Positions 6,167-49,990 of a DNA stretch of 64,000 nucleotides are shown piece after piece (positions within the stretch are counted from its first letter, which is position 1; the number at the start of each line of letters is the position of its first letter). Below the pieces are notes generated by a model. The model saw only the letters and a program-made list of their open reading frames with translations, had not been told where the DNA came from and ran no database searches. Source of the DNA: a virus. Both the position numbers and the translations under genes were made by a program. Location: IMG/VR virus record IMGVR_UViG_3300045999_011383, one strand, 5' to 3'.

Positions 6167-7703
6167 AACCCCTTTTACCAAGGATAGAGACAACTTTCTC
6201 CCATTAATGATGACAGAACGATTATTAATGGGAACGCTGGCAATTACAGCCATAGCAGGTACTTTTTCCCCTGTATTATTTTCCCATCAAAATAACTCGG
6301 TTAAGTTGGTTCAGCAAATATTTGGATTATTCTCAGGTATTTGTTTTACTGGAGAATCTTATCGCAGGAAGCAAAAAGAAAAATTCTACAACTCCATAGA
6401 ACAGGCAAATTTAGCTATTGTCAACAATCAGCTTAAAGGGTCTTTTGCCTTTGAACAGTGTCGAACTCAGATTGATTCTAAGCGGGAATTAGCTTCTTAT
6501 GTCAACTTATTGCCAGAAATAGAACGACCCCGATGGACACAAGAATTTGGGCTACATGGCTTAGTTGAGTTACCGCAGATACAGCAAGCAGTCCTTGAAC
6601 AGCCTAAGCAGTTGCCCGGTTCTCGTAGTATTCCTAACCCAGAGGTTGCCACCATTGACGAACAATCAGTACAAGCAATTATCAATCCTAGCGTAAGACA
6701 ACTACTGCAAGAATTAGCATCTCAGTATCCTGAATATGTGCGGATAGATGATTTCTGGGTTGATGAATTGTGTGAAAGTTCATCTAGACAAAACATGAGC
6801 GATCGCGCCAATCATCACTTTAGTTTTTGGGGAGAAACCCAATCAGGGAAATCAACTTTAGCAGGTGTTTTTATCAATAAGATTGCTGCTAATTCACAAA
6901 GGCCAGCTTATGTGTTTTGTTCAGATCCCAAGAATTACTTAACAGCTTGGTTGTGTAAATTTAGCCGCAAGTTTGATGGGTTTAAAACCAATTTAGATCA
7001 TTGGGTTACTTTTGCCACGAAAGTTATAGATGCACGTCAGGATGAGTTTAAAAACAACCGCAAGGGTGAAGGATTAAGTGAAATATTCTTGGTTCAAGAC
7101 GAGGTTAATGTTGTTTATGGTGAGGGCAAAGGACTACTTGGACAAGTACCAAAAGAAACGGCAATGAACCTTTGCGCTATGTGGAATTATATTATTAATT
7201 TCACCGCAGCCATGAAAATTCACGGCATCTTTATGGGACAAAATCCATTAAGTACCTACACTGGTTTTTCCCGTCCTGCACTTAAAAATATTTGCTTTTT
7301 GGCATTGGGGAAAGTGTCCAATTATGTACTTACTAGAATGCCAGAATTGTTAAATGTCAAAGCAGAAATATCTGATTTGTTTAGTCAAGTGTGTGAACTC
7401 TTAGACAGGGAACAGGTGAGATATGCCCTGGTAATTCCTACTCGTGGTAATCCATTTGTAGCCTTAATTCCGGTATTTGATATTGATGCAATGGAACAGG
7501 TCAACGAACCCCAAGAAACTGCTCCTAAGCAAGACGCAGTTAACTATTACGAAATACTGATTGAATGGATTAAAGAATTAGAGAGATTCCCCACCAACGA
7601 TGAACTAAAAGCAGCCTGGAAACACTTGACCGAACAGGAACTAAATGATAACGGGATTGAGTTACTAGCGTCCAAATTAAAAGAGGAATGGGAAAATGAG
7701 TAA
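6153..7703 (+). CDS. membrane-anchored P-loop NTPase (FtsK/HerA/coupling-protein-like)
   Basis: Two N-terminal hydrophobic spans, Walker A GETQSGKST and Walker-B-like IFLVQDEVN. Confidence 0.55.
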   Translation: MQIRETPFTKDRDNFLPLMMTERLLMGTLAITAIAGTFSPVLFSHQNNSVKLVQQIFGLFSGICFTGESYRRKQKEKFYNSIEQANLAIVNNQLKGSFAFEQCRTQIDSKRELASYVNLLPEIERPRWTQEFGLHGLVELPQIQQAVLEQPKQLPGSRSIPNPEVATIDEQSVQAIINPSVRQLLQELASQYPEYVRIDDFWVDELCESSSRQNMSDRANHHFSFWGETQSGKSTLAGVFINKIAANSQRPAYVFCSDPKNYLTAWLCKFSRKFDGFKTNLDHWVTFATKVIDARQDEFKNNRKGEGLSEIFLVQDEVNVVYGEGKGLLGQVPKETAMNLCAMWNYIINFTAAMKIHGIFMGQNPLSTYTGFSRPALKNICFLALGKVSNYVLTRMPELLNVKAEISDLFSQVCELLDREQVRYALVIPTRGNPFVALIPVFDIDAMEQVNEPQETAPKQDAVNYYEILIEWIKELERFPTNDELKAAWKHLTEQELNDNGIELLASKLKEEWENE

Positions 7704-11640: not shown

Positions 11641-13086
11641 ATGACCGAAAAACCAGGGGAATATACAGCCAAGTACAAGCCAACTCAATTAATTCAAGGA
11701 ACTGGACAGACTGCATTGATAACAGGATGGACTATCAAAGAAGCAGTCCAAAAACATTTGAGTAACCATGAATATGCAGTTATTGGGCAACTATACTCAC
11801 CCACAAGAGGGATTAACTTAGTGGTTCGGAATCTGCTATTAAATCCTCATGTTAGGTACTTAGTAATTCTCAATGGAACTAAGGAAGACAAAAACGCAGG
11901 TGGCTGTCAATGTTTAGCTGACTTTTTTCGTTATGGTTTCAATAAAGGTATTAGTGATATTGGTAGAAAAACCTGGGTAATTTCTTCTTCTATTACTGGC
12001 TATATTGACATCGAGATTGATATGAATGTTTTAAAAAAATTGCGTGAGTCTGTAGAAATCAAGGAAGTACAATCAATAGCCCAAGCTGTTGAAGCGGTCA
12101 GAGATTATGCAACTAAAAAACCCGTTGCACCTTGGGGAACACCCTTAGAATTTCCCATGAGTACAATTGAATCAAATACCCTACCAGGACCCCTCTATGG
12201 TCACAGAATAGAGGGTAAAACCATTGCGGAAACCTGGGTAAAAATCATCCATAGAATTAAAACAACCGGGGTGATCCGACCCACTAGCCATGATGGAACG
12301 TGGCAGGAATTGATAGATTTAATGGCAATTATTACCAATGAGCCTGATGATTTTTACTTTCCTGAACCCAACTATTTGCCAGTAGATAGAAGTTTTTTAC
12401 AAGAATATATTTCTCAGATATTAGAGGACGCGCCTAGTCAAGAAGGGATAAAATACACCTATGGACAAAGGTTACGTTCCTGGTTTGGTAAAGACCAGGT
12501 TCGACAGGTAATTGAAAAGCTAACCCATGACATTAATTCCGCCAGGGCTGTAATGTCTCTGTGGGATATTAAAGAAGACAACGATGAATCTAATCCCCCC
12601 TGTTTAAATCATATTTGGGTAAGGGTAGTCAGCGGTGAACTGTCTTTAACCGCAACCTTTCGTAGTAATGATATGTTCTCAGCATGGCCAGCCAATGCCA
12701 TGGGTTTAAGGGCTTTACAGAAATATATTTATAGTGCTTTATTGAGTTCCCATCAATCCCTCAAATTAGGTCCATTGATTACCATTAGTCAGAGCGCTCA
12801 TATTTATGATGATTGTTTTGAGAATGTCAGCAAGGTAATCTCATCTCAGTATGGTAAGATTGCCAAAAACCAGGATTACTCTGATCCTGTGGGGAATTTT
12901 ATTATTAGTAATCAAGAGGGTAAAGTCGTGGTTGAGCATACCACCCCTGGTTCAGGAGAGGTGGTTAATTGTTATTCAAATAAGTCCGCTTATAAGGTGT
13001 CACAAGAAATAATGAGAGATTGTCCAGGGTTGCAAAACTCCCATGCTATGTATTTGGGATGGGAGTTGTGCAAGTTAAAGTATTAA
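11641..13086 (+). CDS. thymidylate synthase / dNMP hydroxymethylase family enzyme with about 250-aa N-terminal extension
   Basis: ThyA-type motifs are present: PPCLNHIWV (catalytic Cys), FRSNDMFSAWPANAMGL and SQSAHIYDD. The N-terminal half is unassigned. Confidence 0.7.
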   Translation: MTEKPGEYTAKYKPTQLIQGTGQTALITGWTIKEAVQKHLSNHEYAVIGQLYSPTRGINLVVRNLLLNPHVRYLVILNGTKEDKNAGGCQCLADFFRYGFNKGISDIGRKTWVISSSITGYIDIEIDMNVLKKLRESVEIKEVQSIAQAVEAVRDYATKKPVAPWGTPLEFPMSTIESNTLPGPLYGHRIEGKTIAETWVKIIHRIKTTGVIRPTSHDGTWQELIDLMAIITNEPDDFYFPEPNYLPVDRSFLQEYISQILEDAPSQEGIKYTYGQRLRSWFGKDQVRQVIEKLTHDINSARAVMSLWDIKEDNDESNPPCLNHIWVRVVSGELSLTATFRSNDMFSAWPANAMGLRALQKYIYSALLSSHQSLKLGPLITISQSAHIYDDCFENVSKVISSQYGKIAKNQDYSDPVGNFIISNQEGKVVVEHTTPGSGEVVNCYSNKSAYKVSQEIMRDCPGLQNSHAMYLGWELCKLKY

Positions 13087-13201
13087 ATTGTGCTTTAGCG
13101 TTCTTGTTCTTCTTTCTTTTGTTCTTCCTTGAATGTTCGCCAATCATCGAGAACTTTAAACCATTTTTTCTCCAAACACCAAAAATTTAACTCTCAAAAA
13201 A

Positions 13202-14224
13202 CTAGGAAACCTTGATTTCAGCGATCGCTTCTTCTAAATGTTCCTGAATCACTAATCCCTCTCGCTCTAAAATCGCTCGTTTAGCTGCATCTTGGGCAAC
13301 CCTCACAGCTTGAGCCGCAGAAAAATCTTTCATCTGTTCAATAATTCTTGGCCAGTTGATAGATCCCACTTCAATTGCAGATAGTGTTTCCCTCAGTATA
13401 AATTCTAGTTCTTTTTCTCCCGGTTTGGGTACTGCAATCAGATCATCAAATCTCCTCCATAGGGCAGTATCCAAAGATTTATTCAAATTCGTAGCGGCTA
13501 CCATAAGCCCAGAAGAAGGTTGATATTCATCCAAAATTTGCAAAAATGTATTTACTACTCGCTTAATTTCTCCCACTTCCTGAGAATCTTCTCGTGTCTT
13601 AGCAATTGAGTCACATTCATCTAAAAATAATAAACATGGATTTTTTGCAGCATCCTCAAATACCAGTCTTAAATTACTGGCTGTCTCCCCTAAAAAAGAC
13701 GACACCATTGCATCAAAACGTACTTTTAACAGTGGTAAACCTGTATTCCAGGCTAAACGTTCTGCTCCTAATGTCTTTCCACACCCAGGCGGTCCATAAA
13801 GGAGAATTTTTTGCCGATAACGCAGCCCATGATGAGCTAGTCTATCTCTTGCTGCATACTCGCGCTCAATTCTTTGAAAACGCTTTTCAATTTTTTCAGG
13901 CAATACCATGTAATGACGTAGTTTATCCCTTGGTATGGTCGTTACCAAGGGAAGGTTAAAACGCTTACTGGTTGGTAATTCGCTTAAACCCTGTAAGTTT
14001 TCTCCTGTTGTTTGTGTGGCATTTGCAAGAAAGGAAACAGGTTTGATAGGGTCGGGAGATTGATCTCTGGGTTTCTTTTTAGCAATATTCTCTAACTGGT
14101 CAGCAAGGAGGGTATGCCCTTTACTGCGCTCTTCTTCTATGACCAGATATGCAAGTTTGTCAATCGCTTCTTGGTCTGAACTAGCGATCGCTCTGAAAAA
14201 CCTTTTGAGAATCTCTCCCTTCAT
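13202..14224 (-). CDS. classic-clade AAA+ ATPase
   Basis: Walker A GPPGCGKT, Walker B LLFLDECD, sensor VAATN and the second-region-of-homology motif ALWRRFD. Confidence 0.8.
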   Translation of the reverse strand: MKGEILKRFFRAIASSDQEAIDKLAYLVIEEERSKGHTLLADQLENIAKKKPRDQSPDPIKPVSFLANATQTTGENLQGLSELPTSKRFNLPLVTTIPRDKLRHYMVLPEKIEKRFQRIEREYAARDRLAHHGLRYRQKILLYGPPGCGKTLGAERLAWNTGLPLLKVRFDAMVSSFLGETASNLRLVFEDAAKNPCLLFLDECDSIAKTREDSQEVGEIKRVVNTFLQILDEYQPSSGLMVAATNLNKSLDTALWRRFDDLIAVPKPGEKELEFILRETLSAIEVGSINWPRIIEQMKDFSAAQAVRVAQDAAKRAILEREGLVIQEHLEEAIAEIKVS

Positions 14225-14270
14225 ATTGCCTCTCTCTGCAAAAATAGAAGTTTCTTATGTATGTAGTACA

Positions 14271-14299
14271 ATTATACTCTATAACTCAGTGGATGACAA
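14271..14299 (-). promoter_or_regulatory. sigma70-type promoter for the AAA+ gene
   Basis: On the minus strand: TTGTCA, 17 nt, TATAAT. It lies about 45 nt upstream of the ATG at 14224. Confidence 0.5.
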
Positions 14300-14323
14300 A
14301 TTGTATCATGATCTTGCCTTGCA

Positions 14324-14406
14324 TTGCAACTGGGCTTTGACTTGCAATTAACCCAGTCCCTCAAGGTCGGCTTCTTGCAATTAACCCAGTTCCCCAAGTC
14401 CGGTTT
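14324..14406. repeat. decayed CRISPR repeat remnants
   Basis: TTGCAACTGGGCTT (14324..14337) is the exact reverse complement of repeat positions 22-35. Two 30-bp units CTTGCAATTAACCCAGT(C/T)CC(T/C)CAAG(G/T)(T/C)CGG lie at 14341 and 14374. Confidence 0.55.
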
Positions 14407-15543
14407 GCTTCAACTATCCTCAGTCCCTAAGCCCAGTTGCAAGTGTCAAGGGGTTTATTTTCGAAACCCTTATATTTCCTACGTCGTTTCAACTATCCTC
14501 AGTCCCTAAGCCCAGTTGCAAGTGAAGGACGTGATTCTAATGCAGCAAAGAACATCTGTTTCAACTATCCTCAGTCCCTAAGCCCAGTTGCAAGACACAT
14601 TCTTTATCTTTTAAATATAGCTTATACCATCTGTAGTTTCAACTATCCTCAGTCCCTAAGCCCAGTTGCAAGAACACCTTACCACCTTTAAGGTAAGACG
14701 GCACTTTAGGTTTCAACTATCCTCAGTCCCTAAGCCCAGTTGCAAGACAGAATTGAGAGAACTTTCAAGCCATAAGAGAGTAGCGTTTCAACTATCCTCA
14801 GTCCCTAAGCCCAGTTGCAAGATTTTCAAAAATTTAAAAATGAATCTGGACATGAAGATGTTTCAACTATCCTCAGTCCCTAAGCCCAGTTGCAAGAATG
14901 CACATTAACAAAAAAAAACCATGAAAAACCGTTTCAACTATCCTCAGTCCCTAAGCCCAGTTGCAAGAAAACTTATCAGATACTTAATAAGGCTATAGGT
15001 TAGTTTCAACTATCCTCAGTCCCTAAGCCCAGTTGCAAGCTCCCATTTATACAGCTTACTAGCAGCGCAAATAGTTTCAACTATCCTCAGTCCCTAAGCC
15101 CAGTTGCAAGTCAAAAATCAACAGGAATTGGCCACTACTATTGAAGGATGTTTCAACTATCCTCAGTCCCTAAGCCCAGTTGCAAGATAAAGCCGTCCGG
15201 GGAGGCATGACTAATGAGGATGGTTTCAACTATCCTCAGTCCCTAAGCCCAGTTGCAAGTTGAGACAGTTAAACCCAAGGTACTTTAACCTAGTTTCAAC
15301 TATCCTCAGTCCCTAAGCCCAGTTGCAAGAAAGTATTAAAGAAATGCTCAAACTACCGGCATGTTTCAACTATCCTCAGTCCCTAAGCCCAGTTGCAAGT
15401 TGCTACATTTACCATACTTATGGAAACTGTCAATGTTTCAACTATCCTCAGTCCCTAAGCCCAGTTGCAAGTTACTTTGTAAGACGTTATGTAAGACGGC
15501 GATGGAGTTTCAACTATCCTCAGTCCCTAAGCCCAGTTGCAAG
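14407..15543. CRISPR. CRISPR array with 16 repeats of 37 bp and 15 spacers
   Basis: Repeat GTTTCAACTATCCTCAGTCCCTAAGCCCAGTTGCAAG starts at 14407 (this copy begins GCTT), 14486, 14558, 14636, 14710, 14785, 14860, 14931, 15003, 15074, 15150, 15223, 15293, 15363, 15435 and 15507. The spacers are unique and 33-42 bp long. Confidence 0.95.
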
Positions 15544-15886
15544 TCCCGGCTTTCAAAAGCTTTATAAGTCAAGGGTTTCAAAGGCAATTCTGGCGGACCT
15601 GCTAAAAAATCTCATTTCAGCCGCTTAAATCAGCTTGGGTCTTTAAAAGAAACTGAGCGAAACTCTTGCAATGTCATGGTTCTGGACTTTTGGCGAATGT
15701 CCAGGGTTTTTACCCTAGCTTTGATATGCCAAAAAGATGAGATAGTTGCCAGCCATAGTTCCGGCTGGTCTTTGGGGGTTGTCGCCTTCCCCCTTACTTT
15801 TTAGGGTAAAACCCTTACAAGTCATAAGCTAACATTACATTAGCTACCCGTCCAAACTGCGGTAATTTAATATTAACCTAGTCCTA
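15544..15886 (-). ncRNA. candidate leader / tracrRNA-like structured region (hypothetical)
   Basis: 343 nt with no ORF between the nuclease stop and the array. Hairpins at 15682..15704, 15703..15716, 15749..15768 and 15774..15793. GAGATAGTTG at 15739..15748 resembles the repeat end. Confidence 0.3.
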
Positions 15887-17761
15887 TTACTTTGTCAAGC
15901 GTTTTTTCTTAAATCTTTTAGGCTTTTGATAAACCAGCCTAACATTATGGTATTTGACCTCTCCCAATTCAAAACCACCATTCTGTTTATGATTTCTAGC
16001 AGCATTGGTATCAGCTTGTTGGGCAACGTCAAATAATTTACAGTCAGGGTTTTTACAGACAAATTCATACTGCGATCGCCTTTCCCCTTTCTGTCCGCAA
16101 CAATGGCATATTTGAGAGCTATAATTAGCAGGTGGTTCATGGAAGTTGCCACCTCTATTTTCTATTTTTTGCTTGGTTTTAGCTTTCAAGTCACCTAAAC
16201 ATCTTTGTCTCATAATCCAGTTTAAACCACGTTTAGCAGATGCACCATTGTGAGCATATCCCACACCCTCTGGTAATGCTTTTGGATCTACTTGTTTAAG
16301 TAAGTTGGTAACTTGTGTATCCTCCCAAGATATATGTTCATAAGTGCGAGATAATCTTGTGGATAACTTGTGATTAAAGGCATTAGAGGAATTAGCCCCG
16401 CGTTCGTGTAGACGGCTGATTTTTTGTTGTAACTTAGATTCATTCTTTGTCTTGATTCTAGAGGTCTTGTTGCCTAAGCTTTTCCATTTTTTATCATTAA
16501 TTAATTCAGCGTTGTCTAGACGTGATTGTAATTCCTCAATGTGAATTGAGATCCGCTCCCTAGTAAGGTTAGGAAGGAATAAAGCCCCATGATCTGTAGA
16601 CACTACAGCCTGTACCCCAGGGTCAATACCCGCACTCAGATTTTTACCTTTTAAAACTGATGACTGCTTAATTTGTTGCTCAATGAATTTCAGTTTTGAC
16701 TTGATATCTTGGTACTCTTCACTGTCTTCACCAAACTCTTTTTTTACCTTGGGTAACTTATTTGTTAGTACAGACTTTTCCTCTTGCAATGGGTGAGCAA
16801 CTACAATATTAATGTAGTATCCTGACTGCTGTTTGGTAATCATGTATGTCCGTGGCAAAACCTGAGAAAGATTCAATCTTTTTACCCAGTTTTTGTCAGC
16901 AATAGTGATGGGAGTAAGTCCGGTGACAGTAACTATGTTTTTGTCAATGTCAATCCTGTTAGGCGCACATTGATTATTAGATAAAGTTGCAATCTTGTCT
17001 ACATCTTTTTTGAATTTTGGCTTTCTACTGTTTATCCTTTTAGGATCTAAAAATGCCTTCCAAGATTCCTTAAAAAATGCTAACAGCCCGCCAATATAGT
17101 GGGAAGAAACCTGCAAGTCTGGTAAATTTTGGAATGCTCTTAAAGTATTTAATCCAGTCACGTTGTCAAGTTTTTCCAAAGTAGTCAGTTCCCTACCCTC
17201 ATACTTTCCACTAGGGAATGTGCGGTATTTGTGAGGGACTATTTCTATCCGTTGCCAGGGCTTATCGCCTTTAACTAATTTGTACCCCTTGACGTAAATA
17301 ACGCCTTTTTTGGTATTAACTGGAATATTGATATTTTCATCTCTCTTCCAATAATTCCCGCCTGTGGCTATTTGACAGGATAATCCTTCATAAGCACTAT
17401 TTCCAAGCCTTAATGGCACAGGAATAATGCCTTCCAAGCTAAATGGACTCCATCTGGTAAATATCTCAAATTCTTTCTTGCTAACTAATTCCTGTTCTTT
17501 TTTAGACAGCTTAGGCTTATCCTTGGTGGAATAGTAATCTTTAACTAATTGTTGTTGCTCAGGTTTAAGTTTTTCCAGTTTTTCAGTAGCCTTGGTTAAA
17601 TCTGCACTGCGTTTAGCAGCCCAAGCATACCAATCTACGCAGTGATTGTGTAGTTGGTTGGAAAGTGCTAAATTCCACAGCCATGTTAATTCATCTAAGT
17701 AGCGATCGCACACAGCCGCCTGTTCTGATGAGAGTTTGATTTTAATCTTAATTGTCTTCAT
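15887..17761 (-). CDS. TnpB/Cas12-family RNA-guided-nuclease-like protein (candidate type V effector)
   Basis: 624 aa. RuvC-I AGIDPGV, RuvC-II ISWEDT, Zn finger CHCCG...CKNPDC, RuvC-III QADTNAARN. TnpB-like N-terminus IKIKLSSEQAAVCDRYLDELTWLWNLAL. Confidence 0.85.
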   Translation of the reverse strand: MKTIKIKIKLSSEQAAVCDRYLDELTWLWNLALSNQLHNHCVDWYAWAAKRSADLTKATEKLEKLKPEQQQLVKDYYSTKDKPKLSKKEQELVSKKEFEIFTRWSPFSLEGIIPVPLRLGNSAYEGLSCQIATGGNYWKRDENINIPVNTKKGVIYVKGYKLVKGDKPWQRIEIVPHKYRTFPSGKYEGRELTTLEKLDNVTGLNTLRAFQNLPDLQVSSHYIGGLLAFFKESWKAFLDPKRINSRKPKFKKDVDKIATLSNNQCAPNRIDIDKNIVTVTGLTPITIADKNWVKRLNLSQVLPRTYMITKQQSGYYINIVVAHPLQEEKSVLTNKLPKVKKEFGEDSEEYQDIKSKLKFIEQQIKQSSVLKGKNLSAGIDPGVQAVVSTDHGALFLPNLTRERISIHIEELQSRLDNAELINDKKWKSLGNKTSRIKTKNESKLQQKISRLHERGANSSNAFNHKLSTRLSRTYEHISWEDTQVTNLLKQVDPKALPEGVGYAHNGASAKRGLNWIMRQRCLGDLKAKTKQKIENRGGNFHEPPANYSSQICHCCGQKGERRSQYEFVCKNPDCKLFDVAQQADTNAARNHKQNGGFELGEVKYHNVRLVYQKPKRFKKKRLTK

Positions 17762-18499
17762 GTCCGTCGTCTTCCTGTTGTTTTTGTCAATTGGTGTTGA
17801 TGTAAATAGCTGTTTTGTGCTATATTGTTAGTTGCCGCTCCCCCAAACTAGCGGCTAAGTACCTGGTAATAGAAACGTCGTTATTGGTACTAACCGCGTT
17901 TTTTGGTATTTATTTAGGATAGCACAAATTTGGTAATTTAAAAATATTTTTTATATTAAAAATTAGACATTAACTGATAGTTGCATACACCCCAAATCTT
18001 TACCCCAGTCATGTTTTAACTAATTCCTGCTTTCTTTTGTAAGACAATAATGTCAGACAATGTAAACAATGTAGACAAATAATCTTGTTTGAAAACAGCC
18101 ACAGAACCCGTCATTTTAACCACTGGGTTCTTATTACTTATTGACAATTAGTAGATTAATAAATGTCTGCTGATTAGGCAGACGGTATTGCACAGGTGAC
18201 AACCGAGTTATTAGTATAGCATCATAGCAAGTTATTTATACAACAATTAAACAATTGCAAAATTCCGTATACTTTAGGGTTGGCACTGGAAAACTATAAG
18301 GATATTATAGGGATATAGAGTATCTAAGCGGAATGCCCTTCATAAGAGGATTTGAGAAAAGAACTAACACCACAGATATCTGTTGTTCCTGAGACAAAGG
18401 TGCGCCTGCTGCGCTTAAACACTATTACAGAAAAAACAAATAGACTTTGTTTCAGAATTTATAAAGCAATTTTAAAGCGTACTTATTGCATAAATAAAA

Positions 18500-18532
18500 A
18501 AATACCCACTAAAGCGTGTTAGTGGGTAGTGG
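18500..18532 (-). terminator. terminator hairpin, identical 33-bp copy at 28483..28515
   Basis: ACCCACTAA-6 nt-TTAGTGGGT stem with an A-run on the plus strand (a T-run on the minus strand), downstream of the 18562 gene. Confidence 0.55.
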
Positions 18533-18561
18533 AAATAAGCTACTTCACTGGAATACTTGCA

Positions 18562-18813
18562 TTAAATTAACTCCAGCAAAATTGTTAATGCGGACTGGAT
18601 ACTGTTAATAGCATCTTTGATTAATGCCCGCTTTTGGGTTGCGGGTTTGTTTGGACTAGAAACTAATAACTCATCATTAGCTATTAGTTTCATGAATTTG
18701 GAAATGTTGGGGTCTTCACCCCACAGGCAGCCAAACTCCAAAGCTTTATTCTCTAGCTTGGCTTTGTCTTCCATTGAGATAGAGAGCGTGATGCTCTCTT
18801 GTTTTCTACTCAT
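18562..18813 (-). CDS. hypothetical protein
   Basis: 83-aa ORF with a 4-nt overlap onto the upstream gene. Confidence 0.5.
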   Translation of the reverse strand: MSRKQESITLSISMEDKAKLENKALEFGCLWGEDPNISKFMKLIANDELLVSSPNKPATQKRALIKDAINSIQSALTILLELI

Positions 18814-19319
18814 AGAGAAATATTCCCTTTATTTTCAATCCACCATTTTGCGGACGTGGGAATTTTCTTATTGTTTTTTAGTGCGATCGCAACATCATCT
18901 ATTGCTCTAACTGCTATAGATTTAGCCCATTTAATCTGCTTTTCAGAGCCTTCAAACTTTAGCGACTCTACATAATTAAGAGCATCTTCTCTGTTGCTTT
19001 CTGAGACTGGATCTTCTTCCTCGATCTCATAATCGCACGGAATACTATCTAAATTCTTTAAAACAGCACTGAAAATTATTTCATTTATAGGTACAGAAGA
19101 GAGAATAAAACTCTCTTCTCTGATTACCTCTAGAACTAAATCTTCAGCAATAGATTGATAGGTTTCACCTGGCTCTAACTGGAACTCAGAATTGCTCACT
19201 AAATATTCCACTACCTTTCTAACGGCTTTCTGGCATTCTGGATTTCTAAAATCCACACGAATCATTTGAAGCCCAGAAGTGTCAAATTTATTTAAAAGCC
19301 TTCTTTGTTTGATAGCCAT
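18810..19319 (-). CDS. hypothetical acidic protein
   Basis: 169-aa ORF, divergent from the RAMP operon. Confidence 0.5.
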   Translation of the reverse strand: MAIKQRRLLNKFDTSGLQMIRVDFRNPECQKAVRKVVEYLVSNSEFQLEPGETYQSIAEDLVLEVIREESFILSSVPINEIIFSAVLKNLDSIPCDYEIEEEDPVSESNREDALNYVESLKFEGSEKQIKWAKSIAVRAIDDVAIALKNNKKIPTSAKWWIENKGNISL

Positions 19320-19477
19320 GATACAATACCTTTAAACGATGTTTTACTTAGAGGCTTGGGCTTGCTCCCCTTGCCTCTATATTTATATCATTACACAATA
19401 TTTTATCCTTGTCAATAGCAAAGTGTCCGTATTTTAAATATTTTGTACTGAACTTTTGAAGTTGTAAATTGTACAAC

Positions 19478-19579
19478 ATAAAAAGAAGTAAACGACGTAA
19501 CCGACATCAACTAAAACAGCAACTAAGAAAATTAGATGCGATCGCACTTAAACAAATCCATAGCAGCTTGGGGGGATAA
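19478..19579 (+). pseudogene. start-less fragment related to the N-terminus of the 30825..31118 protein
   Basis: Hand translation IKRSKRRNRHQLKQQLRKLDAIALKQIHSSLGG* versus MKTKRQARRHRHLLKKQLRELDAIAKKQINNNYNLAASSWGG. No ATG, and a stop lies just upstream. Confidence 0.35.
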
Positions 19580-19852: not shown

Positions 19853-20371
19853 GTGACAACCAATCATTACGGAATGCCACAGACACGAGACAAGTGTTAT
19901 GGCGTGGCTGCTTGTTTAAGTTATTGGGTTTTTAAATGCCGTGACAGGAAACGTAGTCCAGCCATGGGAACTAAAACCTGGACATATTTGGAATCTTCTA
20001 TCAAGAATTGTGCAGAAATATCCACAAATTTAGAAGATTATCTACAAAATCTTTGTGATAAATTGATATCGCAATTAAGACCTGTAGAGCTAACCAAAAT
20101 TATTCAACCAACTCAGAGAATACTGAGAATTAATGAAGATGCAACTGAAATCAAGGAACTACCAATAGATCGAAGTTTGGTTTTTATGGGGTGGCTTGAC
20201 TTGCTTGCCGATATTGAACCCCACGGATTTAGTGAGTGGGACGTAATGGAATTGTTAAGAACAAAAACAGGAGTTATTCAAGTAATTTGTCGTCTGCGAT
20301 TTGAAGAAGATAGAAGTGTGGGGCTTGATGAACCAGAAGAATTTATTGAGGTAGAGGTGACAAATGTTTGA
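19853..20371 (+). CDS. first gene of the RAMP operon, possible small-subunit (Cas11-like) protein
   Basis: 172 aa with a GTG start after GGGAAAG. The 8-nt overlap with the next gene and the size fit, but I saw no diagnostic motif. Confidence 0.3.
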   Translation: MTTNHYGMPQTRDKCYGVAACLSYWVFKCRDRKRSPAMGTKTWTYLESSIKNCAEISTNLEDYLQNLCDKLISQLRPVELTKIIQPTQRILRINEDATEIKELPIDRSLVFMGWLDLLADIEPHGFSEWDVMELLRTKTGVIQVICRLRFEEDRSVGLDEPEEFIEVEVTNV

Positions 20372-21497
20372 TAATTATAATATTTTTGACAGAGAGAAAT
20401 TAACCCTGCATTGCTTAATCACGCTACAGACACCATTGAGCCATATAGGCGAAGTGTCTGGCAATGTTAGCAATCTGAAAACTACTAAGTTATTGGACTT
20501 TGAAGGTAATCCTAGAAGTGTTTTTGTCTATTCTGGTAATGCAATCAGAAACGGTATTTTGCGCCGGGTAGGAGTGGCAGCAGCACTCACGGAATTAGGA
20601 ATTAAGGTAAATCCAGATACTCACCATACAATGTTTGCTGGCGGGCGAATTGATGGGGGGACAGCTTCGGATATGGAACTGGATAAAAAGATCCGGGTCT
20701 TTATGCCTTGGCTATCAGTATTGGGAACAGCCAAACCCATAGGTGTTTTTGGGACTAAAGAAGCCCAGATGGTAGCTGGTAGAAGTAATATTGGCAGTGG
20801 TTATTTAGTCTGCTATGAGTCAGCAGAATACGTTTACAACCAACTCCCAGCAGTTTTACCACCGGAAATACAGCCAACTATGGCCTTATTAATTGAAGCT
20901 AAAACCAGACTTTCTTCCGACCCTTTTGTATCCACAAAATCAGAAGACTTAACTAACTGGAATCAAGCAAAATCAGAATGTTTGCCACTGATCAAAAAAG
21001 CAATGAAAACATGGACTGAATACTTAACAATTGATCAGACAACTCGCAGAGATAGCACTTTAGATCCCAACTTACTCAAATTTCTACCATCAGAAGTACA
21101 AGCACAATTAACAGGTGATGGTAAAACTAAAGAAAAAACTAAATCAGATCAGATGATTGCGTCTGACAGGCTGATCATGCCCGGTGCTAAACTTTATTCT
21201 CGATGGGATCTAACTTGTACTCAAATAGAAGAGGGATGGATATTTGATACTTTACTCAAGTTTTCAGAATCACCTTATATTGGTGGTAAAGGCAATCGTG
21301 GCAATGGCAGGGTTCATCTTGATTTCTGGTTTCAGTCTGACCATGAACGGGGGTTATTGTGTTCTCTGAAAGATGGAATTATGGGAGATAGGTTTCTTAA
21401 TTCCCATCAAAAATATCGGGAATATATCAATCAGTATCAGCAGTTTTTAAGTGAAGCAAAAACATCCAAGGAATTAAGGAAGTTGTTAGGTGAATAA
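20364..21497 (+). CDS. RAMP protein, Cas7/Csf2-like backbone subunit
   Basis: 377 aa. N-terminal LHCLITLQTPLSHIG, then YSGNAIRNGILRR, and a C-terminal glycine-rich loop YIGGKGNRGNGRV typical of RAMPs. Confidence 0.6.
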   Translation: MFDNYNIFDREKLTLHCLITLQTPLSHIGEVSGNVSNLKTTKLLDFEGNPRSVFVYSGNAIRNGILRRVGVAAALTELGIKVNPDTHHTMFAGGRIDGGTASDMELDKKIRVFMPWLSVLGTAKPIGVFGTKEAQMVAGRSNIGSGYLVCYESAEYVYNQLPAVLPPEIQPTMALLIEAKTRLSSDPFVSTKSEDLTNWNQAKSECLPLIKKAMKTWTEYLTIDQTTRRDSTLDPNLLKFLPSEVQAQLTGDGKTKEKTKSDQMIASDRLIMPGAKLYSRWDLTCTQIEEGWIFDTLLKFSESPYIGGKGNRGNGRVHLDFWFQSDHERGLLCSLKDGIMGDRFLNSHQKYREYINQYQQFLSEAKTSKELRKLLGE

Positions 21498-22176
21498 TTT
21501 AAAAGTCACTGCATATTTGTCTACACCGATTGGTGTCTATGACAATTGGAGTCCTTCTTTGGAGGGACTTCTTACCTATAGATTACTAGAAGAAAATAAT
21601 CTATTGTCTCCCAATCCCACCGCAGAGCAAGTAGCAAAGGTTCAGAATTTTTTAGTAAATGAATTACCGCTTAAACAGAATACAATAATGAATGATAAGT
21701 ATTTCTGTGTAAGTTCACCTTGCTATGTGGTTCAAGGTGAGGCTACTGATAAATATCGGAAAAGATGGGACAATCACGAAAATAATCTGAACTGGGGAAA
21801 AAGAAAGCCTAAATTCTTGACGGGTGAAGGTGCAGAAAAGTCCTATGATTTACCGCTATACACTCGTTTAACAAATAGTATTAGTTGGTTTGTAACAGGC
21901 GACAGAACCAAGATTGACGCTCTATTGTCACCTGTTACCCATATTCAGAAAAAACGAAGTTATGGCAATGGTGAAGTTAAGCAATGGCAACTAGAAATAG
22001 TTTATGACGACTATCATTTGTGGCGAGATAATAAACTAATGCGTCCTATGCCCGTGAAGTTAATATCACAAAAAATAGATAATCCTCAAATGATTTGGGG
22101 ATGGAAAAGCCCGTCTTGGTTAGCAGAAAATAAAGAACTTTGTTATATGCCAAAGGACAATGTGATTTATGCTTAG
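21490..22176 (+). CDS. RAMP protein, Cas5/Csf3-like
   Basis: 228 aa. LKVTAYLSTPIGVYDNWSPSLEGLLTYRLL N-terminus and a KKRSYGNGEV glycine loop. Overlaps both neighbouring genes. Confidence 0.5.
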   Translation: MNNLKVTAYLSTPIGVYDNWSPSLEGLLTYRLLEENNLLSPNPTAEQVAKVQNFLVNELPLKQNTIMNDKYFCVSSPCYVVQGEATDKYRKRWDNHENNLNWGKRKPKFLTGEGAEKSYDLPLYTRLTNSISWFVTGDRTKIDALLSPVTHIQKKRSYGNGEVKQWQLEIVYDDYHLWRDNKLMRPMPVKLISQKIDNPQMIWGWKSPSWLAENKELCYMPKDNVIYA

Positions 22177-22915
22177 TAATGGCTCTGGGGTTCAATACCC
22201 TTGGTTGAAAAAGAAAATTACTAAAGCTATTAATTTCATTAATCAGTGGCTAGAACAATGCAACTATCAGGTTTATGCAAGTATTTCCGGTGGTAAAGAT
22301 AGCTTAGTAATGTCTCATTTGATCAGGAAAGTTTACCCTGATTGCCCGTTAGTTTGGGTAAATCAAGGGCTGTTAGCAGAATGGGATGATTGTATTGAAT
22401 TATTGGAATACTTGAAAACTCAAAACTGGAACATTATTGAGCTTTGTCCAGTTCGTGATTTATGGCATTTATACATAGATCACGGAGTTCCGTTAGAGGG
22501 TACGATGGATACAAAAGTAGATAAATTAATCAACCAAAAATTGATTTATGATCCATTGCAAGAATACCAAGAAATCAACAATATCAAAGGGTACGCATGG
22601 GGAATAAGGAAGCAAGAAAGCAAAAACAGAGCATTTTATCTTAACAAGTACGGTGAAGTTCATGAACTAAAAAATGGGTTAATTTGTTGCTCGCCTATTG
22701 CTCACTGGACTACAGAAGAAATATGGCAGTACATAGATATGTACTCACTCAAATACCCAGCAATTTATGACATTAACAAAATGACAGTCAGGAATGGTTG
22801 CCCGATTGGAACTACAGGAGCAAACTGGGGTAGATTAGCTGAATTAAAAAGATATTACCCCAATATTTACAACCAATTTGTTGATAAATTCCCACAAATA
22901 TCGAACTATGTCTAA
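22169..22915 (+). CDS. PAPS-reductase/CysH-like PP-loop protein
   Basis: PP-loop SISGGKDS and WGIRKQESKNR. I saw no C-terminal ECGLH motif (it reads RNGCPIG instead). Confidence 0.8.
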   Translation: MLSNGSGVQYPWLKKKITKAINFINQWLEQCNYQVYASISGGKDSLVMSHLIRKVYPDCPLVWVNQGLLAEWDDCIELLEYLKTQNWNIIELCPVRDLWHLYIDHGVPLEGTMDTKVDKLINQKLIYDPLQEYQEINNIKGYAWGIRKQESKNRAFYLNKYGEVHELKNGLICCSPIAHWTTEEIWQYIDMYSLKYPAIYDINKMTVRNGCPIGTTGANWGRLAELKRYYPNIYNQFVDKFPQISNYV

Positions 22916-23666
22916 TTGCTACCTTTGCGCTAAACCAGCATCAAATCCACTAGAATTATCCAATACTTTCACCATGCACTCATCGGCTAAGTGTCCAGAC
23001 TCTAAGCTGCTGTGCGATCGCTGCTATTCTACAATTTCTGGTAATCAAAAGCAGTTATGGTATTGGAATGAAGGTAAAAATAAGTGGTCAAAACTGTGGG
23101 GACGATCTTTGTCCAGGGTGTACCAAGGCGATACTTTAATAGCACCAATAATTAAAGGCACTCACACTGAAGGCAAAGATACTTTCAGTGTGGTTAGAAA
23201 CTTATTGACGCGGGTAGAAATCAGGGAATATTTATTAAATCCTCCTGAGCCACCGTTCACTATCGCTATAGCAGAATCAGGACAAAAACACATTATCCCA
23301 TGGGCATTAGAAGCGCGTAGCTGTAACTTTTTTCCAATTCAATTTGAGTTAGACACGGTTTATATTGACAACAGATTCAAGGAATCTTTGCAAGTATATG
23401 AACAACTAATGGGATTAGGGTTTAGTAAGTCTGAAATTGATTCAGGAAACTACAGAAGCGATAGATTGATGAAAGTGTTTGATAAATTTTGGGAACTTGA
23501 GGAATCCATAAAAGCCATTAGAGGGACTAGATTAATGGAATTAATAAATTACGTCGCTCAACTACAATCAAGTGCCGTCGTGGCGGAAATAAAGCCAATT
23601 CCTGTAATTCCTGTTTCTCCCACGAGTCCAGACAAATCAAATCCAGTTCAGTTATCGTTGTTTTAG
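22908..23666 (+). CDS. Zn-ribbon protein, Csf1-like large-subunit candidate, with C-terminal clamp-binding motif
   Basis: The ATG at 22908 overlaps the cysH-like stop (ATGTCTAA). N-terminal CYLC...CPDSKLLCDRC. The C-terminus is NPVQLSLF followed by the stop. Confidence 0.45.
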   Translation: MSNCYLCAKPASNPLELSNTFTMHSSAKCPDSKLLCDRCYSTISGNQKQLWYWNEGKNKWSKLWGRSLSRVYQGDTLIAPIIKGTHTEGKDTFSVVRNLLTRVEIREYLLNPPEPPFTIAIAESGQKHIIPWALEARSCNFFPIQFELDTVYIDNRFKESLQVYEQLMGLGFSKSEIDSGNYRSDRLMKVFDKFWELEESIKAIRGTRLMELINYVAQLQSSAVVAEIKPIPVIPVSPTSPDKSNPVQLSLF

Positions 23667-49495: not shown

Positions 49496-49990
49496 TTACG
49501 GATTAGCGATCGCACTAATTTGATGTATGCGTTTTACTAGTAGTCCGTTGTCTATTTCCGCTTGCTGTTTTTCCAGTTCTAATGCGTTTAGTTGCTCGCT
49601 CAATTGTTTTAGCTGTAGTAGGGATTGTCCATACTTGTCCTGAGTTTCAAGTAAGTCTGTCTGTAATTTTTCCTTCTCAGATTGCAGTTCATTAATCTGC
49701 GTTTGTAGTTGCAGATTGTGTTTGAAGCTGATGATTCCCCTTACTTCATCTAAGCTGCAATCATAATTAGGGACTACCCAAGATTCAATAGGAAGAAAAG
49801 CACCATCACGAGATAAAGAGTAGTCCACCAAAAATACCCTGTCTTGAGGTGTGGGTGGCAATTCAATGGTAATTTGCCCTTCATTAATTTCATAGGTATT
49901 AATGCCCGCCGTTACCCCAAGAAATGGAATATTTGGCTTGAGTCTAACAAAGCCTCGCTGAATATCTAATGACCCTGATATTTTGACCAT
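49496..49990 (-). CDS. tail-module protein with a C-terminal coiled coil
   Basis: 164-aa ORF, last gene of the minus-strand structural string. Confidence 0.5.
   Translation of the reverse strand: MVKISGSLDIQRGFVRLKPNIPFLGVTAGINTYEINEGQITIELPPTPQDRVFLVDYSLSRDGAFLPIESWVVPNYDCSLDEVRGIISFKHNLQLQTQINELQSEKEKLQTDLLETQDKYGQSLLQLKQLSEQLNALELEKQQAEIDNGLLVKRIHQISAIANP

Follow-up and report, generated by a model that had tools for sequence, protein, structure and literature searches.

A very probable tracrRNA gene and array leader between cas12p and the CRISPR array of a phage-borne type V-P locus

What is encoded in a gap that separates a nuclease gene from a CRISPR array when both are carried by a virus? 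The question is raised by positions 15544-15886 of the window, by which we mean the whole 64,000-nt stretch analysed here (IMG/VR virus record IMGVR_UViG_3300045999_011383). These 343 nt lie between the cas12p stop codon (15889-15887) and the first repeat of the array (15543-15507). A preliminary description had called the gap an ORF-free spacer, and zero minus-strand ORFs of at least 60 aa occur within 15544-15886. From hairpins seen by eye, it had proposed that the nuclease strand might carry a tracrRNA- or omega-RNA-like scaffold, or a leader. Both the scaffold and the leader parts of that proposal proved sound: in the Cas12p family, a tracrRNA defined by experiment is encoded at precisely this place, and the lower part of the gap is leader. 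Its coordinates and sequence strings were correct throughout, apart from the length of one arm in a long-range stem. We conclude with high confidence that 15544-15886 belongs to a type V-P CRISPR-Cas12p locus carried by a phage, and that its minus strand holds first the tracrRNA gene and then the array leader of that locus. The element is already known, being the tracrRNA of a published CRISPR subtype, type V-P. The features discussed below are as follows.

15887..17761, minus strand: cas12p, type V-P effector, 624 aa (phmmer against PDB, Pfam, NCBIfam)
15870..15898, minus strand: predicted tracrRNA promoter (promoter scan, 10/12 matches)
15737..15863, minus strand: tracrRNA core, predicted start A15863 (covariance model R1 and covariation counts)
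15862-15859/15851-15848, minus strand: core helix 1
15854..15857, minus strand: GUUU in the helix 1 loop, nt 7-10, predicted pseudoknot partner of repeat AAAC (published numbering and invariance)
15845-15840/15832-15827, minus strand: core helix 2
15822-15819/15799-15796, minus strand: core helix 3
15815-15811/15807-15803, minus strand: core helix 4
15793-15789/15778-15774, minus strand: core helix 5
15768-15762/15755-15749, minus strand: core helix 6
15738..15748, minus strand: anti-repeat, directly 3' of the last helix (ungapped pairing table of 10 modules; duplex predictions)
15677..15736, minus strand: probable tracrRNA 3' extension, as in the published 185-nt design (position of nt 185 in the related locus L002)
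15604..15676, minus strand: upstream part of the leader, an eroded repeat-like segment (conservation)
15544..15603, minus strand: repeat-proximal part of the leader (homology among loci)
14407..15543, minus strand: CRISPR array, 16 repeats of 37 nt (repeat finder)

The nuclease, the array and related loci

The nuclease ORF of the preliminary description (15887-17761, minus strand, 624 aa) is Cas12p, also named "Cas12 hacker", of type V-P. In a phmmer search against PDB, residues 1-615 matched the Cas12p entries 9JFS and 9JG3 with 1268 bits, which is lower than the 1415.6 bits of the L002 protein, the closest to 9JFS. Domain searches returned a Cas12f1-like TNB domain from Pfam and TnpB-family matches from NCBIfam, and alignment revealed that the RuvC motifs are kept, with an intact triad. 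Our first guess had been Cas12k/CAST, given the cyanobacterial look of the locus and the size of the protein. We rejected it because the PDB matches and the published work identify Cas12p, the RuvC triad is intact, and no Tn7-like genes were seen among eight neighboring ORFs scanned against Pfam. Cas12p has been described as a phage-associated, tracrRNA-dependent nuclease with host thioredoxin as its activator (Wang et al., bioRxiv 10.1101/2025.01.20.633832; structures PDB 9JFS and 9JG3; journal version Nat Microbiol 2026, doi 10.1038/s41564-025-02224-z, as listed in PMC13728456). The published ortholog binds a tracrRNA together with a crRNA and needs the tracrRNA for cleavage, and expression of the tracrRNA in E. 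coli was low (bioRxiv 10.1101/2025.01.20.633832).

Protein-guided searches yielded 11 IMG/VR loci, 8 metagenome loci and 1 Cuspidothrix MAG locus, with Cas12p proteins 69-88% identical to that of the window. The order cas12p, tracrRNA, array is common to all of them. The tracrRNA start sequence lies 18-32 nt past the stop codon in all loci extending far enough, with the exception of L008 and L009, where it sits inside a longer ORF that runs 24 nt into the RNA; an array follows downstream in all loci reaching far enough. The MAG locus (L021, Cuspidothrix sp. contig JBJTUF010000062.1) places a Cas12p locus with tracrRNA and array in a cyanobacterial MAG. Its cas12p frame stops after 235 codons even though tblastn aligns residues 1-617, which suggests a frameshift or an assembly error. 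A virus record that shares 43% of sampled words with the window has zero scaffold copies and only a distant TnpB-like gene.

Read in the minus sense, the repeats of the window array each end in GAAAC, and the array closes at 14407 with a variant repeat. This orientation agrees with the AAAC repeat end in the published work and with the anti-repeat and pseudoknot pairing described below. One protospacer was found for the array, and it is imperfect: the spacer at 14523-14557 (minus strand) matches Aphanizomenon phage vB_AphaS-CL131 (MG209611.1, 63137-63170) at 31/34 bases. The protospacer sits inside a TnpB-like "transposase" gene of that phage. With TCA in place of GTN as the 5' flank, the PAM offers no independent check on how the array is oriented. 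The match suggests that phages infecting Nostocales are rivals. Just past the variant repeat, 14341-14406 holds two tandem 33-nt units that are 85% alike; short motifs of the repeat recur in them, and they may be trailer-end repeats in decay. Elsewhere in the window, 19853-23666 (plus strand) is a five-gene operon with overlapping junctions, the second ORF of which has a weak match to Csf2 (type IV Cas7).

Structure of the RNA and its pairing with the repeat

Statistics computed within the window are at chance level, and the decision therefore rests on comparison across loci. As a single sequence, the core folds with z = -1.6, which is not significant; the 343-nt gap folds with z = -1.5, and 7/100 shuffles fold equally well. 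Thermodynamic significance was absent on either strand, for the core and for the whole gap. An 8-nt perfect complement to the repeat arose in 185/2000 shuffles (9%), a frequency that is not significant within the window alone and that bears out the caution of the preliminary description about a match of 8-10 nt. Across related loci, by contrast, the signal does rise above chance, through compensatory changes in two of the stems named there and an anti-repeat that co-varies with the repeat.

Covariation shows the predicted folding of the ~127-nt core into six helices. We took the structure from the window and imposed it on 10 distinct cores that MAFFT had aligned by sequence alone; the same alignment served to build covariance model R1. 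In this alignment, 92.3% of cells pair, compared with 84.0 +/- 1.1% for shuffles and 28-48% for slid controls. Compensatory change on both sides was found in 10 of the 31 pairs across the 10 distinct loci, and the covariation score (0.316 vs 0.159) was reached by 0/500 shuffles. A model-fitted alignment of 17 distinct sequences, biased by construction toward the imposed structure, has 95.5% of its cells paired and compensatory changes in 22/30 pairs. R1 scores the window core at 135.5 bits (E 2.7e-34), and the single-sequence fold of the window recovers five of the six helices. Identity of the core is 115/127 aligned positions to L002 and 118/127 to L004. The helices contain many G-U cells, and one pair is G-U in every locus; an RNA read from the plus strand would have A-C at these places, which fixes the RNA to the minus sense. 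Rfam had zero matches in 13000-19500 at E up to 1, with only a chance miRNA match elsewhere, which argues that this is not another known RNA class.

Among the stems named in the preliminary description, those at 15774-15778/15789-15793 and 15749-15754/15763-15768 are present and carry compensatory changes, at the coordinates of helices 5 and 6. The remaining three lie beyond the core. The stem at 15682-15687/15699-15704 can form in the window, but its pairing is lost in L002 and L004, the closest relatives, and it is mutually exclusive with the conserved long-range stem; that at 15703-15707/15712-15716 is likewise present in the window but only partly kept across loci (61% paired). The long-range pairing itself (15688-15694/15728-15734) exists and is conserved, with 7 bp rather than the 8 suggested, the distal arm having five A's. 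What had been missed was the 5' half of the RNA (15796-15863), its promoter and the GUUU loop.

The predicted promoter has a -35 element, TTGACA (15898-15893), that lies within the last cas12p codons, a 17-nt spacer and a -10 element, TAATAT (15875-15870), for 10/12 matches in the promoter scan; it thus spans the cas12p stop codon. Both hexamers are kept in the three relatives scanned, around a 17-18-nt spacer of changing sequence, and the same hexamers are visible by eye at the remaining loci. This conserved sequence suggests that a sigma-70-type promoter starts the RNA at about 15863, A15863 being seven bases past the -10 element and thus the predicted start.

How well does such an RNA fit the one that has been studied? 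In the published work, the tracrRNA is 185 nt long in the sgRNA, with 118 nt resolved plus a 10-nt stretch of repeat; it forms six stems, and its G7-U10 form a pseudoknot with crRNA positions -4 to -1, AAAC (bioRxiv 10.1101/2025.01.20.633832). We judged the fit through this numbering, tested on L002. Counted from the predicted start, nt 7-10 of the window RNA are GUUU (15857-15854). When L002 is numbered from the corresponding start, nt 118 coincides with base six of the anti-repeat, and nt 185 falls just past the conserved CCAGAACC block. The 10 resolved repeat bases are then explained in that locus by six anti-repeat pairs together with the four of the pseudoknot. Because three independent numbers fit, we place the 5' end at 15863 and equate 15677 with the 3' end of the published RNA. 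Our six helices resemble the six published stems by count and order, rather than through a mapped one-to-one numbering.

The pairing with the repeat provides a second line of comparison. The GUUU loop is invariant at all Cas12p loci. In Cylindrospermopsis phages the loop is GUUC and the repeat ends in GAAC, and so the pseudoknot itself co-varies. The anti-repeat pairs with repeat positions -5 onward, and a weaker extension is predicted to about 15727. In the window, it forms eight Watson-Crick pairs and one G-U, ungapped, with repeat positions -5 to -13, while in every module its positions 1-7 pair ungapped with repeat positions -5 to -11. Across five repeat families, the anti-repeat and the repeat change jointly (pairing table of 10 modules): anti-repeats begin 5' with CAACUAU, CAGCC, CAGAC, CAAUCC or CAGUCC, each opposite its matching repeat. 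When duplexes were compared in a matrix of cognate and non-cognate combinations, the predicted duplex of the window had -18.7 kcal/mol over 22 nt, and the cognate duplex of L010, where complementarity spans nearly the whole repeat, had -42.8 kcal/mol. The pairing script mis-anchored the second modules of L005 and L007, introduced below; read by eye, they have a different repeat and a matching, G-U-rich anti-repeat. The preliminary description had singled out the 10-mer at 15739-15748, equal to the minus-sense repeat end minus one G, as an anti-repeat. That pairing holds, and the 10-mer marks the true start of the repeat:anti-repeat duplex, abutting the last helix and co-varying with the repeat.

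From these features a sequence of events can be proposed. The promoter across the cas12p stop codon would give rise to an RNA from about 15863, and the first ~127 nt of this RNA would form the six helices. The GUUU of the helix 1 loop would form a pseudoknot with the last four repeat bases, AAAC, of each crRNA, and the bases from 15748 onward, right after the last helix, would pair with the repeat just upstream of that AAAC. The RNA probably includes the conserved hairpin that follows and extends to about 15677, which would make it the counterpart of the 185-nt tracrRNA in the published work, and the remainder, 15676-15544, would serve as an array leader made of eroded repeat-like pieces. By analogy with the published ortholog, Cas12p loaded with the tracrRNA:crRNA hybrid may cut spacer-matching DNA at a GTN PAM, with thioredoxin as the activator.

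Relation to known RNAs and the rest of the gap

The resemblance to the published Cas12p-1 tracrRNA extends from its location, flanked by cas12p and the array and sharing their strand, to the 5' end, the GUUU:AAAC pseudoknot and the helix order, as judged through the published numbering. The window has the neighbors of a type V-P tracrRNA, namely a Cas12p ortholog and an array on one strand, as well as GUUU at nt 7-10 in helix 1 that is complementary to the terminal AAAC, an anti-repeat that pairs upstream of AAAC and a multi-helix scaffold. The last 17 nt of the repeat are identical to those of an L002-type locus. There are also differences of detail. Helices 2 and 4 contain substitutions, with pairing kept. 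From its eighth base onward the anti-repeat departs from that of L002 and is the same as that of L004, and L002 lacks a repeat-proximal stretch of ~60 nt that is present in the window leader.

Two other RNAs are alike in part. The Cas12k RNA of type V-K CAST systems shares the position between effector and array, pseudoknot pairing to the repeat's 3' end, a GTN PAM and a cyanobacterial setting. Cas12p and Cas12k share a PI-domain layout and partial RNA similarity, and the Cas12k RNA is larger and more complex (bioRxiv 10.1101/2025.01.20.633832). In contrast to Cas12k, which is RuvC-inactive and resides in a Tn7-like CAST, the window effector retains its RuvC triad; with Cas12p as the best structural family and the RuvC motifs kept, the RNA does not belong with type V-K tracrRNAs. 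The omega-RNA of TnpB (ISDra2-type) is likewise a scaffold 3' of a TnpB-fold nuclease with a pseudoknot beside the guide, and stems 1-4 and 6 of the published tracrRNA resemble it (bioRxiv 10.1101/2025.01.20.633832). It differs from the window RNA, which has its own predicted promoter and whose guide comes in trans from a 16-repeat array through an anti-repeat instead of being fused in cis; the window RNA is therefore not an omega-RNA. No transposon ends or tnpA were noticed at the locus.

Downstream of the core, the 3' extension carries the long-range hairpin (15734-15728/15694-15688) and the conserved CCAGAACC block (15685-15678). The hairpin is 94% paired but missing from L005 and L007. It is near-invariant, with almost zero covariation, and for that reason covariation does not prove it. 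Farther along, every full-length module keeps a 23-nt block (15626-15604) with a U-run at 15609-15604, regardless of which repeat it has. The stretch homologous to 15676-15604 resembles the repeat of its own locus in L017 and L010. The repeat-proximal leader consists of a repeat-like tail that ends in GAAAC at 15575 and a 31-nt segment (15574-15544); it is homologous in L004, L005, L007, L008, L017, L018 and L021 and absent from L002 and L010-L012, loci among which L002 and L010 have a first repeat that begins 4-8 nt past the conserved U-run. The 31-nt segment is not an ordinary spacer, because it is conserved between loci. We infer that 15736-15544 acts as the 3' extension and as a leader with fossil repeat pieces. 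On a parallel reading, the fossil-repeat blocks in 15676-15544 may be still-functional RNA parts rather than dead leader.

Two further ideas about the leader were considered. The leader might hold a regulatory crRNA that targets the phage itself, but this was unsupported within the 64 kb: the best matches of the 31-nt segment and of the post-block sequence were 16/20 and 14/20, and neither was GTN-flanked. Likewise, a repeat and leader that copy a host array, so as to be extended by host Cas1-Cas2, were unsupported by a search of 301 genomes of the Cuspidothrix family with the repeat and leader, which gave no repeat match and only weak 20-28-nt matches.

Where transcription starts and stops bears on how the gap should be divided. 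We consider it rather unlikely that the single conserved promoter drives one long transcript of tracrRNA, leader and pre-crRNA that is later cut up. Pattern scans of the window and three relatives found no canonical intrinsic terminator on the sense strand and no convincing separate array promoter between 15863 and the first repeat, the best being a 9/12 site in L010; the closeness of the first repeat to the U-run in L002 and L010 points the same way. Such scans are crude, however, and cyanobacterial and phage promoters often stray from consensus. Moreover, the U-run at 15609-15604 may terminate transcription with a weak hairpin, and a conserved GACA-containing block at ~15675 could be a -35 element.

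Less probable still is an omega-RNA-style origin, in which the scaffold lacks a promoter of its own and is cut out of the cas12p mRNA's 3' UTR, in the manner of TnpB omega-RNAs. Its location directly 3' of the nuclease gene, the likeness of stems 1-4 and 6 to the TnpB omega-RNA and the overlapping ORF of L008 and L009 fit such an origin, but they must be set against a near-consensus promoter 7 nt upstream of the conserved 5' end at every locus. The detached second modules of L005 and L007 have this promoter too, as do the dispersed copies of the Cylindrospermopsis phages, with no nuclease gene upstream, and the guide is supplied in trans rather than fused to the scaffold. As for the gap being an AT-rich CRISPR leader and nothing else, with chance hairpins and a Cas12p that works with crRNA alone, we find this scarcely credible. 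It would explain why fold energy and the 8-nt complement are at chance level within the window, yet it runs against the published structure and biochemistry that show a tracrRNA (bioRxiv 10.1101/2025.01.20.633832), against the strong covariation and against an anti-repeat that co-varies with the repeat.

Hosts and dispersal of the RNA module

For the window, the preferred reading of a type V-P tracrRNA gene followed by a leader would settle which RNA the nuclease needs and supplies coordinates for guide design: 15863 for the start, 15857-15854 for the pseudoknot, 15748 for the beginning of the anti-repeat and 15677 for the end equivalent to the published one. The tracrRNA finding itself holds no new biology, but the comparative by-products could merit a study of their own, namely anti-repeats that are swapped in step with repeats on a fixed scaffold and the presence of two modules per nuclease. 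The hosts of Cas12p phages were left undetermined in the published work (bioRxiv 10.1101/2025.01.20.633832). The Cuspidothrix MAG locus, the spacer against an Aphanizomenon phage and the Cylindrospermopsis phages place them with Nostocales hosts; the closest cultured relatives of the window infect Cylindrospermopsis.

Using R1, we found second tracrRNA modules, each with its own promoter and array, at L005 874-998 (minus strand), at L007 405-529 (minus strand) and in genome G003. The second module lies ~4-5 kb upstream of cas12p, on the opposite strand, with a different repeat. Because a complete 95-kb genome has one cas12p, one nuclease appears to serve two tracrRNA-array modules. In L007 (~6440-6480), a spacer of the first array matches part of the tracrRNA gene of the second module in that genome, with one mismatch in ~39 nt as read by eye. 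It could be a self-match or a shot at the tracrRNA of a rival phage, and its flank is not GTN.

The same model detected 12 scaffold copies in CrV-01T (L001, MH636380.1), a Cylindrospermopsis raciborskii virus, and 10 in phage Cr-LKS4 (OQ625504.1), at 44-81 bits. Both are cultured cyanophages, and each encodes a single Cas12p-like "transposase" that keeps the RuvC motifs and shares 45% identity with the protein of the window. Every copy is dispersed and sits behind its own -10 element; no mention of these copies was found in the literature searched. Two modules per cas12p in the 95-kb relative and 10-12 dispersed scaffold genes raise the tentative possibility that scaffold, anti-repeat and array form a portable, multiplying RNA module and not a fixed companion of the nuclease. 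The many dispersed copies in cultivable cyanophages matter because a culturable host-phage pair exists for testing. In six of the CrV copies, an anti-repeat to the phage's GAAC-ending repeat is followed by a full or truncated repeat tail and unique sequence. A scaffold fused in this way to a truncated repeat tail and unique sequence would look like a natural sgRNA, midway between an omega-RNA and a tracrRNA:crRNA pair. The copy at 49563-49688 of the CrV record has its hairpin in cis, like a natural single-guide RNA.
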